Below are positions 3,707 to 61,308 of a stretch of DNA of 64,000 nt, one piece after another. The notes below the pieces were generated by a model that had not been told where the DNA came from, made no database searches, and saw nothing but the letters and a program-made list of their open reading frames with translations. Position 1 is the stretch's first letter. Every line of letters starts with the position of its first letter. The translations under genes and the position numbers were made by a program. This DNA is from Eledone cirrhosa (lineage: Eukaryota): positions 40,982,001-41,046,000 of the forward strand of contig OZ024741.1 of assembly GCA_964016885.1 (NCBI GenBank). Direction: 5' to 3'.

Positions 3707-3747
3707 CCGAGCTGAGGATCCGCATAAGGTGAAACAATTGTTCTCGG
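3707..3747 (+). ncRNA. Minimal type I hammerhead ribozyme
   Basis: Stem I CCGAG/CUCGG, CUGAGGA 3712-18, short stem II (U.U, CC/GG), GAAA 3731-34, palindromic stem III ACAAUUGU, GUU cleavage triplet. Confidence 0.75.
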
Positions 3748-4101
3748 TATGGTGAACTGTTGTGTTACTACTTCTACCAAACTCGTCCCCTGGACTGAGT
3801 GTCTACTACTACGGGTATTACCTTCCAGTGTTCCACCTTTATATATATATATATATATATATATATAAATATATATATATATATAAATATATATATATAT
3901 ATATATATAAATATAAATAAAGGTGGAAGGTAATATCCGTAGTAGTAGACACTCAGTCCAGGGGACGAGTTTGGTAGAAGTAGTAACACAACAGTTCACC
4001 ATACCGAGAACAATTGTTTCACCTTATGGATCCACCGAGCTGAGGATCCGCATAAGGTGAAACAATTGTTCTCAGTATGGTGAACTGTTGTGTTACTACT
4101 T
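3707..4101. mobile_element. PLE pseudo-LTR fragments in fold-back arrangement around (TA)n
   Basis: 3707-3840 (+), TA tract, 3918-4033 (-, same sequence), 4034-4101 (+, second hammerhead copy 4034-4076), then TA. Confidence 0.8.
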
Positions 4102-4179
4102 ATATATATATTATTAAGACTAAATTGTGAGTCTTGTTACTCTAGAGATTCACATGCTTCCTTGCTATTATAAAATTAT

Positions 4180-4465
4180 AATCATCATCATCATGACCAT
4201 TCTTCCATGCTAGCATGGGTTAGACAGGTTGTCCTGTTGTGGGCAGTGTCCAGTCGGCTGACCTTGTCTTACTCATACGGGAAGTGATTCTGGCTTGATT
4301 TCTACAGCTGGATGCTCTTCCTAACACCAACCTCATTTACAGTGAGTGGTGGGTGCTTTTTTTCCGTGGCGCCTACATGACCACTTTGCAGTGGGAGGGG
4401 ATGGGGGCATGTTGTCTATATGCTTCAGCTTCGGGTTGTACCCGTGGGAAGTGGAGTCTTCTGTA
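4180..4465 (-). mobile_element. RTE subfamily 2, 3' UTR fragment
   Basis: Collinear with 54784-55070 and 56767-57100; (GAT)n tail. Confidence 0.8.
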
Positions 4466-4854
4466 TAATGTAGCTAAATATAAACACATTAAAATAAACA
4501 GCTTAGACCCAGAGGCAGTTTTGCAAAACCTTTGAGTAGCAAGACTCATTATTTAGCCTAATTAAATTAATATTTAAACTCTATTTCGGTATTGAATACT
4601 CTGTACTCTTGGCCAGCAACTATACACGGATATATATATATATATATATATATACACACACATACATACATACATACATATATATATATATATATTTCGT
4701 TTAATTATACATGTTAGTTGATCTTCATCATCAACAAACTTGAGTGTACTCAACATAAGCACTCCATGCCTTAAATATCCATAAAGGTTGTATTAACGTT
4801 GATATGCGAGAGTCTGAAGAGAGATGCTATCAAAATTGATTCAAGAAAGTCCTT

Positions 4855-5590
4855 GATAAATTTGTGTGGACAGGTGTTAAAAAACCTGATTGCCTATTTA
4901 TTATATGGGGCTTACTTTTAATAATTTCTATGACTTCTGTCATGCATAAATCACAATTATTTGCTAAAGATTCTCACTTGTATGGGTGTGCTGTTTGTAG
5001 GTGTGGACCAAGACAATGAATGCTATATATTATCCTGTTTTAGTTGCCATATTAGTTTAGATAATGCTGTGCTACCATGCTAGTCTATTCTATTAAATAG
5101 GTGGCACTGGTAGTACCACCTTTCCTTAATGCTATTCACTTTTGGCCCTATGTATTTACATGACCTATTGCTAGTGGTAACTCAGCACTCATAGACAATG
5201 TTTTTCTCTAAGCATCTATTCTGCATGGGGCAGTTTACTGGGTTTCTACAGTTGCAATCCTGGTTAGACATATGCGTTGTGTCTGAATCTTATCTATTAG
5301 GACAGCTAAAAACTCTATCTAGGTATATGGTATTGTGTCTATTGCTAAGGGCCCCATGGGTTGCAGTGTTATCTATTTGTCTGTGCTCGTTGAGACTATA
5401 TTTCTTTTCTAATCTATCATGGTTTATTTTGGCTATGTTTTGTTGAGTGTGATAGCTTTGTAGTATACATATTAAACATTCAGTTGTATCTATGAGATTT
5501 TATCAAGTGTTTTGAAGAAAATGCAACCAATGTTGGTTTTGAGCCCAGCTGAGTATGGTGGGTTGTACCATATGCTATGTAAACTGGCTT
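4855..5590 (-). pseudogene. Decayed Penelope-like (Naiad-type) ORF 3' part: linker, CxCx5Cx5C knuckle, GIY-YIG endonuclease
   Basis: Manual minus-strand translation: IWYNPPYSAGLKTNIG...CNCRNPVNCPMQNRCLEKNIVYEC*V...KYIG...STALSKLIWQLK...CDLCMTEVIEI...CPHK; stops and frameshifts present. Confidence 0.8.
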
Positions 5591-6089
5591 AATTTTTATT
5601 GTGTTGTTGGTATTATATAGCTAGAAGAATGGGAGTTTCCTTGTGGTATGGATAAGTCATTGGGTTAGCAGAATGTGCATTCATATTCTCGATTATGTTC
5701 AAAATGAATTGAAAAACAGAGGCAGAGTTTTTATTAGAAATATAGTAATGCAAGGGTTAAAGCAAGCAGTAGATACCTGTATGAACTAAATAAACTGTAG
5801 TACACATTGAAAAGATTAAAGGTTTTGTTTTTAATAACAGAATGTATAAATATTGACAATTATAATTCTTTAGACACTTAATCAAAAAAAGTTAATTATC
5901 CTATAAATGAAGTTGTCATTCTCCATCAATTATGTTATTAAAAACAAACTTTTAATTACTTGCTTGGGCTCTTATTTATTCATTGGTATATATATATATA
6001 CATACATACATACATACATACATACATACATATATATATATATATATATATATATATATATATATATATATATATATATATATATATAC

Positions 6090-58507: not shown

Positions 58508-58696
58508 ATATATATATATATATACATACATATATATATATATACATATATATATATATACATATATACATATATATATACATATATATATATATATATA
58601 TATATATATATATATAATATATATATATATATATATATATATATAGAATAAGGGAAAGCGAAGTAGCTTCAGATGTTCAAGTCCTTTAATAATAAT

Positions 58697-58770
58697 GCTG
58701 TGATATATATTTCAATGACGACACTGGCCACACTGTTCTGTGTGCGAGTGTCGTGACATCATCAGACAGC
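58697..58770 (-). ncRNA. Type I hammerhead (inverted-arm copy)
   Basis: Reverse complement of 60119-60192 with intact core. Confidence 0.78.
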
Positions 58771-60118
58771 TTATTACATAATAAGGTTATGTTTCCGAGG
58801 CAATCCAAATTGAATCGACATGGGAACGGATGAAGTGCGTGCTTTTGGGTTTTTCATCCGTTCCCCTGTGAGTACCAATTCACCCCCACCGGTCTGTGCA
58901 GGCACATGTCCGAAGAAAGTTGACCATTATTCGATATTTACTCCGTCACTCCTATGTGGAAAAAGTACGTTGAGTGCTTGAATTGAATTGCATCAATGTT
59001 TACCCTAATAATTTAGCTCCAATTAGTTGAGCGCTCTATGATGTAACCGATATGGTGGAGAAAAGAGGAACCAACCATGAGCTACCCCGGAAATTCCCTC
59101 TATCATGGGGATGGAAAACCCTGACACTGGACGGACATAATAGTAACTTTCGGCAGGATAAATATGCGGAAACAAAAAAATAAGATAAACCCCTATTTTC
59201 CTGCACCAAATCGCATTTGAACAGAAGCCCCCTCAATTCAATCTATACATGGACAGATGGACAATCATATAAATCATTTTGCATATATGTCCTCTGTGTT
59301 TTTGCATTTATTCACTATTAGTTCTGTTCTTTTCTTTTGTGTACTTTATGTCTGTTTTTCTTTGGTTTTGTTCCATGTGATGGAAATTATGACTGTGTAC
59401 CAGATTGACTAATGCCTTGAATACTGTAGCTTGCCCTCCGTTCTAATGTACGGCACTGTCGTTCAATATGTGGATAGAGTAACTGTGACACTAGAACCCC
59501 TCTCAGAACTTCTTACTTAAACACCACTCTCCATATTATTTACTCACTTCAATGTATATATTTTTTTACTCACCTCAATCCGAATTCTCACTTGAAAATT
59601 TTTTTAATGTTTTAATTTCTAATTGTTAATTTTTTAATTGTTTAATTTATAATTTCTGATATTTGATTTATCATTTTAATTTTTATTTCCAGCTCTCACT
59701 CTTAACTTCCAATGTAAAATCAGGATACCTAGAATTAAGTTTATTTCCCTTATGAGTTGATGGTCAGTCATACTGTCAACGCTTGGTGAGAGGTAGTATT
59801 ATGACCTGTAAAAACTAATACTCTCCCATCCCCTCTGGCTTTCGGCTGACTGCCACAGTCGTGATGGGTAACAGTAAACTGTGGTACAGGCATAGGTGGG
59901 CCATTGTTTGGCTGAGAGGGTGAACTGACTAAGCGAATTTCGTTGAAATCTGCGGTAGCTAATGGTCAACTTACCTCGGACATGCGCCTGCGCAGACCGG
60001 TGGGGGTGAATTGGTACTCACAGAGGAACGGATGAAAAACCCAAAAGCACGCACTTCATCCGTTCCCATGTCGATTCAATTTGGATTGCCTCGGAAACAT
60101 AACCTTATTATGTAACAA

Positions 60119-60192
60119 GCTGTCTGATGATGTCACGACACTCGCACACAGAACAGTGTGGCCAGTGTCGCCATTGAAATATATATCACAGC
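60119..60192 (+). ncRNA. Type I hammerhead ribozyme
   Basis: Stem I GCUGU/ACAGC, CUGAUGA 60124-30, long stem II (CGACACU/AGUGUCG), GAAA 60176-79, palindromic AUAUAUAU, AUC triplet. Confidence 0.8.
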
Positions 60193-60796
60193 ATTATTAT
60201 TAAAGGACTTGAACATCTGAAGCTACTTCGCTTTTCCTTATTCGATATTTACTCCGTCACTCCTATGTGGAAAAAGTACGTTGAGTGCTTGAATTGAATT
60301 ACATCAATGTTTACCCTAATATATATATATATATATATATACATACACACATATATATATATAAATAAATATACATATATACACACATACATATATATAT
60401 ATATACATATATACACATATACATATATATATTATACATACACATATATACACATATACACATATATATTATACATACATATACACACATATATATATAT
60501 ATATATATATATATACACATATATATATATATACATATATATATACATATATACACACATATATATATACACACACACTCACACATACGCATACATATAC
60601 ATACACATATATATATATATACACACATACATACACATATACATATATATACATATATACATTTACATACACACACATACACATATACACATATATACAC
60701 ATACACGCACACACATATACACATACACAGACACACACACACACACACATATATATATATAAAGATTTACATATACATAAAGTCACAGATATATAT

Positions 60797-61308
60797 GTGG
60801 CAACCGGTCACGTTGTGGCTCAATGAAGAATTAATAAATTAAATAAGCAGAGCAATATATCATAAATCATGTCCTTAGAATTATTAGATGAAATATATAC
60901 CATTTCCTCTCCCAATTAGCATAATTAACCATATAAAAAAATCAATTAGACCAGGCTATAAGAATAAAGGCTCCTAAGAAGAAATTTTCGACAAATAACC
61001 GAAAGCGGCCTCTTCGCGGTGACCCCAATAGAGTATTTACCCAACAATTCAACAGCATGTAGAACTGACTAAATAAACCATCAACCATACACAATTAGGT
61101 GTAAATTTAAACTTAGAAGAAACGTGTACATACCGTAAGTATATCTCTACCATGGTTTCGTCTGTATTTTTAGATATCCTATTGTTAGGATTTATCCGGA
61201 GTAACAGACTCATCAGTCTAATTGTTTTTTATATGGTTAATTATGCTAATTGGGAGAGGAAATGGTATATATTTTATCTAATAATTCTAAGGACATGATT
61301 TATGATAT
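60797..61308 (-). mobile_element. PLE-derived fold-back element with hammerhead core (61148-61216) lacking its 5' stem I strand
   Basis: Arms 60857-60951 / 61216-61308; CUGAUGA-GUCUGU..ACAGAC-GAAA-CCAUGG-UA. Confidence 0.8.

Follow-up and report, generated by a model that had tools for sequence, protein, structure and literature searches.

Truncated tandem and inverted copies, (TA)n bounds and a hammerhead ribozyme make up a layout that has been described for Penelope-like elements (PLEs) (PMC8557442). We analysed a 64,000-nucleotide stretch of the genome of Eledone cirrhosa (contig OZ024741.1 of assembly GCA_964016885.1, positions 40,982,001 to 41,046,000 of the forward strand; ‘the window’, with positions counted from its first letter) in which short insertions with this layout share a bulged hairpin near their 3' ends; an earlier note on the window, made from its letters, had drawn attention to this hairpin. 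The hairpin is real and is a cis-element found across the clade; as far as our search reaches it is new, and it falls within a known mechanism class. PLEs of the Hydra clade carry two such hairpins in their terminal repeat, and insertions end 6–9 nt (mode 7) before either; we put at roughly 0.7 the probability that each hairpin docks the reverse transcriptase (RT) on the sense RNA, with copying starting just 5' of it.

The Hydra elements of Craig et al. (2021) share with those considered here their protein motifs, a hammerhead, a (TA)n target, copies in tandem and inverted orientation, and a tail, often at one end; that paper differs in that the tail is ascribed to endonuclease resolution and the consensi contain the motif unremarked, the terms ‘hairpin’ and ‘stem-loop’ being absent from its main text (PMC8557442). 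For the Anolis carolinensis Poseidon PLE (PAc), Frangieh et al. (2024) describe a protein, predicted to be a dimer, that cuts and extends both target strands; in vitro, two internal starts bound the tail, and RNA to +172 is needed beyond the start at +111–118 (PMC11167929). PAc and Hydra have in common two ends or starts whose interval is the tail and an AT-rich target, and in PAc both strands are extended and RNA 3' of the starts is required; however, PAc belongs to another clade, its starts lie inside the open reading frame (ORF), one of them in an AC-rich stem-loop, its tail is 30–40 nt as against ~60–125 nt in the Hydra families studied here, and its start is described as non-homologous to the target whereas the Hydra spacers are TA-phased (PMC11167929). 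The available text of that study defines no conserved docking motif, and the letters of its Fig. S1 contain no RCUC/GAGY pair.

With the template core of telomerase RNA, the Hydra arrangement would share an internal template, a 3' alignment region that pairs with a repeat primer, and an RNA helix bound by a related RT; it differs in that the telomerase template-boundary element stops copying on the 5' side, whereas the Hydra hairpin lies 3' of the start, and in that Hydra has no repeat synthesis (PMC4993307). The non-LTR (LTR, long terminal repeat) retrozymes, or non-autonomous PLE derivatives, are, like the units in the window, short, non-coding and hammerhead-bearing and related to the pseudo-LTRs (pLTRs) of PLEs; the units in the window differ in that they insert as inverted pairs in (TA)n, and the terms ‘tail’, ‘hairpin’, ‘stem’ and ‘initiation’ do not occur in the available text of the preprint (bioRxiv 10.64898/2026.07.22.740005).

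The source genome (3.0 Gb) is rich in (TA)n, and the hairpin sites listed in the earlier note lie inside short (TA)n-bounded insertions with 5'-truncated tandem and inverted copies, an optional tail and hammerhead cores; on these grounds its identification of the insertions as PLEs stands. To identify the autonomous element we took as the query the 150 residues at the end of a frame found in the blind sample (see below) and obtained 150 near-identical matches, many of them in an 821-codon open frame. A full tandem (locus L183) has a 3,936-nt unit in which the hammerhead comes first, followed by end 1, hairpin 1, end 2, hairpin 2 and the ORF, so both hairpins precede the intact frame, which lies on the minus strand at G000:C4:169498800–169508200. 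This single 821-codon frame contains YRDD followed by a C-terminal YFGST stretch (the order RT, then GIY-YIG-like endonuclease), has 21 homologues at 28–38%, reads SDKT (the change from DKG to DKT) and has RLRWT where the RWK motif is expected; by eye, its linker contains CNCRIKNKC (CxCX5C), CNLC (CxxC) and CLH (CxH) and no CCHH. A Pfam search of the partial frame detected neither an RT nor an endonuclease domain. The pLTR matches the hammerhead core pattern, and the element has TA flanks. DKT, CxCX5C, CxxC and CxH without CCHH are among the features of the Hydra clade (PMC8557442), to which we assign the motif-bearing autonomous element from its protein motifs and architecture. The earlier note had instead named Naiad, a clade with an N-terminal endonuclease and no canonical hammerhead; the motif-bearing element has a C-terminal endonuclease and a hammerhead core, and the Naiad RT-endonuclease suggested for testing is the wrong enzyme because the motif is that of the Hydra clade.

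The published consensi agree with this assignment. Craig et al. give six Hydra consensi in their file S7; on inspection by eye, three contain a perfect motif (one of them twice, 61 nt apart), two contain near variants, and one contains none that is clear; the motif is present in those from a coral and a sea cucumber (PMC8557442). Six 9-mers of the 3' arm of the motif gave eight matches in the 584,131-character supplement, in which line breaks may hide others: four in Hydra terminal regions and four in Naiad or Chlamys, with a single match in the Naiad consensi that is, by context, far from the 3' end (PMC8557442). In the window, tblastn with the Hydra ORF found no match inside the hairpin-bearing insertions, and the Hydra remnants (4833–5573 and 23318–23921) are on the opposite strand; the short families are likely to be non-autonomous dependants of Hydra PLEs rather than autonomous members.

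The full units carry a second hairpin, missed in the earlier note, roughly 60–125 nt from the first. Tail-less ends lie ~7 nt before hairpin 1 and tailed ends ~7 nt before hairpin 2; therefore, the tail is the interval between two hairpin-linked ends. Hairpin 2 is found just past the tailed end in all five motif families with a read-through copy that were examined, that is, the families of the insertions at 58646 (hairpin 2 at 59016–59032) and 6590 (6889–6905), that of the hairpin at 60818 (in which the closing pair is a compensatory T-A), the autonomous family, and locus L083. An offset of 7 is allowed by 20/26, 10/10 and 3/6 tailed ends in the first three of these; in the autonomous element it is allowed by 12/16 tailed ends and 13/17 tail-less ends, and the single tailed end at L083 allows 2–6. 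Hairpin 1 is missing from tail-less copies and hairpin 2 from tailed copies; therefore, the signal acts on a longer precursor.

Inverted insertions have one end of each kind. In families queried without their tail, 31/32 inverted insertions (25, with one locus counted twice, plus 6) have one tailed and one tail-less end, the single exception being a chimeric junction; in a family queried with its tail, the count is 13/13. The tail may be carried by either arm, and Craig et al. had already noted that it is often at one end only (PMC8557442). As a separate observation, stacked PLE families share (TA)n runs, often 3' end to 3' end, and thereby form chimeric junctions (L027, L038, L057, L106 and L153; 3840–3919 and 30118–30137 in the window).

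The offset from hairpin to insertion end is 6–9 nt with a mode of 7. For 12 hairpin sites in seven families, 91/136 ends allow 7 and 113/136 overlap 6–8; deconvolution of the offsets assigns 0.45 to 7, 0.19 to 6 and 0.075 to 8. The earlier note had placed the end of the inverted arm at exactly 7 nt; this value is only the mode, since families span 6–9, and inverted arms are not alone in ending at this site, since direct-orientation copies do so too (in the family of 58646–60318, tail-less ends are exactly 7 nt before the hairpin in 11/15 cases, inverted arms and direct tandem copies alike). Of its three unambiguous junctions, those at 6590 and 58646 are exactly 7, but that at 4101 is 7 or 8 because one T may belong to the target; at most exact junctions, a target T is the first base. 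The five junctions that it described as blurred by TA but compatible with 7 are so (12830, 4–8; 29748, 5–9; 30385, 4–9; 38393, 5–8; 61308, 3–7).

The motif reads RCTC, a variable stem-loop, a 2-nt bulge, GAGY and RCTY; with this continuation of its 3' side, GAGY-RCTC forms an 8-nt palindrome (metagenome loci L185–L264; 59029–59036 in the window). As a blind sample we used 600 kb at preset coordinates, 200 kb adjoining the window and 400 kb at round positions elsewhere. In this sample, 49/154 matches to the motif lie 15–69 nt before a TA run, compared with 18/154 for its mirror form and 5/107 for its reversed form; the complement is a less clean control (26/107). For a test that is blind to the motif, we collected from the 600 kb and the window 170 pairs, each made up of a short end bounded by TA and a longer copy, and kept the 47 that are inverted, non-simple and have tails of 30–140 nt (20 families). 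Counting from the short end, the motif lies inside the first 16 nt of the tail in 30/47 copies and 11/20 families, compared with 2% of shuffled tails, and the first three inner pairs are paired at 31/33 positions compared with 18.7 in shuffles; because families share ancestry, both shuffle values overstate independence and serve as a guide only. We set aside by eye 12/33 clusters as antisense read-outs or chance matches, and an earlier covariation count of 53/63, which came from a set partly filtered for pairing, is superseded by the motif-blind and metagenome counts. The structure is thus conserved, with covarying inner stems, across otherwise dissimilar families, as the earlier note had maintained.

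The motif and its strand bias recur in Hydra elements from marine metagenomes, of which we scanned the best 80 of 386 loci. Where at least 100 nt are available upstream of a near-complete ORF (n = 34), the strict motif occurs upstream in 21/34 loci in the sense orientation and in 2/34 in antisense, with two strict copies 58–75 nt apart in 7/34; it also follows the downstream hammerhead in 18/39 loci, and the ORFs contain 13 sense matches in 136 kb. After inspection (one of the 21 looks like a chance match, and seven more have a short inner stem), 27/34 upstream regions contain the motif and 10 contain two copies; they form 29 sequence clusters. Among 68 hairpins gathered irrespective of pairing, C-G forms the first inner pair in 31 and T-A in 18, the bulge is TT, TC or TA in 62/68, and inner positions are paired in 129/204 cases compared with 98.6 when shuffled. 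In 52 distinct hairpins, positions -8 to -3 before the hairpin follow TATATA in a fixed phase (3.27 of 6 positions, compared with 1.9–2.0 further upstream), and the AT content of this stretch is 0.85 compared with 0.63–0.72 further upstream. Five metagenome junctions have offset ranges of 8–10, 5–9, 2–6, 6–8 and 0–5, broadly rather than tightly in line with those in the source genome.

These observations, that is, the anatomy and its order, conservation, covarying stems, strand bias, offsets, TA phase, and the pairing of a tailed with a tail-less end in inverted insertions, can be assembled into the following mechanism. The endonuclease would nick the (TA)n target, and the nicked TA end would pair loosely with the AU-rich stretch 5' of a hairpin and so pick the exact register; each hairpin would dock an RT on the sense RNA, copying would begin just 5' of it, and the hairpin itself would not be copied from its own start. 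The 3' stem-loops of long and short interspersed elements (LINEs and SINEs; e.g., UnaL2 of eel) are likewise hairpins recognised by an RT beside a primer-pairing repeat, but theirs are located 5' of the start and are copied. Two priming events on the same RNA would yield the inverted, once-tailed product, and the short non-coding families would keep the hairpin cassette and borrow the Hydra enzyme. In the twin priming of L1, two primers on one RNA also give an inversion, but L1 inversions lack the duplication of end sequence. More tentatively, at what we judge to be somewhat less than an even chance, a single RNA that bears two docking hairpins is primed from both nicked target strands, once from each, giving every inverted Hydra insertion a tailed end and a tail-less end; each site would then be a miniature telomerase arrangement (internal start, 3' primer-alignment stretch and RT-bound helix), and the ~20-nt hairpin would be a portable address for starts inside any RNA.

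The earlier note had proposed an RT-docking or a template-boundary element that sets an internal start. Docking is, from the sequence, the most likely role; a telomerase-type template boundary is rejected, because such a helix lies 5' of the template and stops copying, whereas the hairpin here lies 3' of the first copied base. The Poseidon precedent supports internal initiation, but internal initiation was thereby already published (two sites bounding the tail; PMC11167929). For PLEs, a model with an antisense template has been put forward (PMC3846280); the occurrence of the motif on the sense strand agrees better with a sense template.

Several observations weigh against docking as the general explanation, as does the shared ancestry mentioned above. 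The families in the window have no ORF, and the shared cassette is their sole apparent tie to Hydra enzymes; the motif is absent from 9/20 motif-blind tail families; and two other PLE types in the genome (Neptune/Nematis-like by their linker motifs, judged by eye) form two ends without it. Offsets differ by family (at least 8 in 9/16 ends of the 7323 family; 4–6 in 4/10 of the 3781 family), and in the blind 600 kb alone 5, 6 and 7 are not separable (24, 22 and 21 of 37 intervals), which tells against a constant offset. Hairpin stability is low (about -1 to -13 kcal/mol, flanks included), and prediction often yields a fold other than the bulged one; this weakness fits a protein-stabilised structure but proves nothing. 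Finally, G-U compared with A-C pairs favour the sense strand in the source genome (8 vs 2, in a set partly selected for pairing) but not in the metagenomes (7 vs 9).

That the hairpin is a chance match in AT-rich repeats has a negligible probability: the pattern is short, 84/154 matches lie far from TA runs and one control reached 26/107, but the motif-blind and cross-species tests refute it. We also consider it very improbable that base pairing between the TA primer and AU-rich RNA alone sets the starts and that the hairpin just happens to be close by, with a role in packaging or stability. The spacers are indeed TA-like, and microhomology blurs most junctions; however, the exact-7 junctions begin at a mismatching G, each of the two ends has its own hairpin, and a better match, the perfect internal ATATATAT 65 nt upstream, is passed by 55/55 copies and never used as an end (0/55); therefore, primer pairing alone is insufficient.

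The same genomic footprint would be left if the hairpin signalled cutting of the RNA ~7 nt on its 5' side, followed by ordinary priming at the new RNA 3' end, and Frangieh et al. report RNA-seq read ends at both Poseidon start sites (PMC11167929). This reading is nonetheless unlikely, since the Poseidon starts in vitro are internal on a longer RNA and hammerhead cleavage is unnecessary (PMC11167929), and since such cutting would remove the TA-phased stretch between end and hairpin and so make it useless. Alternatively, copying might begin further 3', with the endonuclease trimming a cDNA or DNA intermediate 7 nt from a hairpin recognised in DNA; Craig et al. attribute the tail to endonuclease resolution (PMC8557442), Frangieh et al. 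cite a requirement for the tail of the D. virilis element in endonuclease recognition (PMC11167929), GAGY-RCTC is itself palindromic, and G-U counts are no proof of RNA. We regard trimming as improbable because the ends directly adjoin the target (TA)n, the Poseidon starts in vitro coincide with the genomic ends (PMC11167929), and loops vary from 5 to 65 nt with pairing kept, which suits a single strand. Docking of the RT on the sense RNA is the reading that we prefer.

In the window, the non-autonomous PLE insertion at 58646–60318 (+) has (TA)n on both sides and consists of a tail-less inverted arm (58646–58929), hairpin 1 of the upstream pLTR copy (58940–58975, +), the tail, hairpin 2 (59016–59032, +; 5–8 nt past the tailed-end position and 76 nt past hairpin 1), the body, a putative hammerhead core (60124–60179, +; a match to the pattern CTGANGA...GAAA only, with an inverted-arm copy at 58710–58765, -), hairpin 1 (60251–60286, +; 7 nt past the tail-less end position 60243) and a tailed end. 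That at 6590–7407 (+) has a tail-less inverted arm (6590–6840), hairpin 2 (6889–6905, +; tailed ends allow 7–11), a hammerhead core (7063–7107), hairpin 1 (7323–7355, +; partner end exactly 7, with the family mostly at 8–9) and a tailed end. A short tailed copy at 3707–3839 (+) contains a hammerhead core (3712–3734) and hairpin 1 (3781–3800); here the GUCC/GGAC inner stem given in the earlier note is present, but the bulge is 1 nt rather than 2 nt. An inverted insertion of the same family (3920–4101, -) has a tailed copy with a hairpin (3951–3970, -) and a tail-less arm (4035–4101) that stops 7–8 nt before the hairpin position. A further inverted insertion, at 60762–61308 (-), has a tailed copy, hairpin 1 (60818–60853, -), a hammerhead core (61156–61216, -) and a tail-less arm to 61308; in its relatives hairpin 2 is TCTC/GAGA.

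The other sites for hairpin 1 are at 30031–30056 (+; partner end 29748 allows 5–9), 30159–30179 (-; degenerate, partner end 30385 allows 4–9), 38296–38319 (-; in a short family that is very common, with partner end 38393 allowing 5–8), 40590–40608 (-; hammerhead core at 40651–40673, -, with a relative at 12700–12830 that is cut within the hairpin and whose other arm ends tail-less, 4–8), 19420–19439 (+; copy truncated directly upstream of it), 23950–23975 (+; a short tailed piece adjoining the opposite-strand Hydra ORF remnant), 4578–4597 (+; degenerate) and 62101–62121 (-; TA bulge). Eight of the eleven sites first listed fit RCTC-N-YT-GAGY at the coordinates given; that placed at 40589 begins at 40590, 4578 has GAAT for GAGT and 30159 has ATTC for ACTC. 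The list was also incomplete, since it lacked 3951–3970 (-), 58940–58975 (+) and 62101–62121 (-) as well as the second-class copies at 6889–6905 and 59016–59032. The broken Hydra-type ORF remnants are at 23318–23921 (-; endonuclease end, tblastn E down to 9e-19) and 4833–5573 (-; linker and endonuclease, E down to 4e-17); a search with 23860–23938 as the query found one relative only because this stretch is antisense ORF. A search of Rfam gave 165 matches at E ≤ 1, and the 150 listed are all under the gathering score.

Other repeats accompany these insertions. In a Neptune/Nematis-like family, two ends lie at the same 7-nt word inside the start of the ORF (L057:7584–7610, L067, L004 and L020; near 37600, -, in the window), and 5–6 nt past its first end comes a GTTT/AAAC stem that also has a 2-nt bulge; the geometry is that of the hairpin motif, in other letters. 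A young Neptune-like family (L171–L182) has 784-codon open frames and a tail of ~35–40 nt without the motif. At a Neptune/Nematis-type locus (cluster 24, L071), an apparent hairpin 2 with seven ends at offset 8 is a chimeric junction, and its rows were dropped from the offset count. Another TA-bounded family has a tail of 56–82 nt and a different terminal hairpin (L034:1726 and L059:2969; 19340–19400 and 63746–63828 in the window). A near-perfect 123-nt fold-back (29790–29912) lies at the inner joint of an inverted insertion. The sole long open frame of the window (7700–11047, +; intact, 1,115 codons) is unrelated to the hairpins; by its endonuclease-RT layout we read it as an RTE-type LINE, and truncated relatives are at ~19850–20400, 53190–53900, 55090–55930 and 57070–58500. 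An abundant SINE-like repeat, whose head is weakly tRNA-like (28 bits), is also found in (TA)n (6089–6420, 30399–30753, 36433–36803 and 51980–52281), and 31394–32581 is a tandem array of ~37 copies of a 32-bp unit.

The earlier note knew of no description of this motif, and we found none in the literature searched, whose coverage ended short of subscription journals and Repbase notes. The choice of ends, the optional tail and inverted insertion are stated open questions for PLEs (PMC11167929, PMC8557442); with a clade-wide motif that predicts both ends, they become questions for point mutations, and the intact 821-codon Hydra element in the source genome makes the proposal testable. The pair of hairpins provides a simple rule for annotating the boundaries of Hydra elements and of their non-coding dependants, and may be of use in gene writing with RTs, an application in which a defined internal start is important. 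The finding also bears on how telomerase-like RTs came to internal templates, and hairpins that likely mark the RT start would explain the long-puzzling optional tail.

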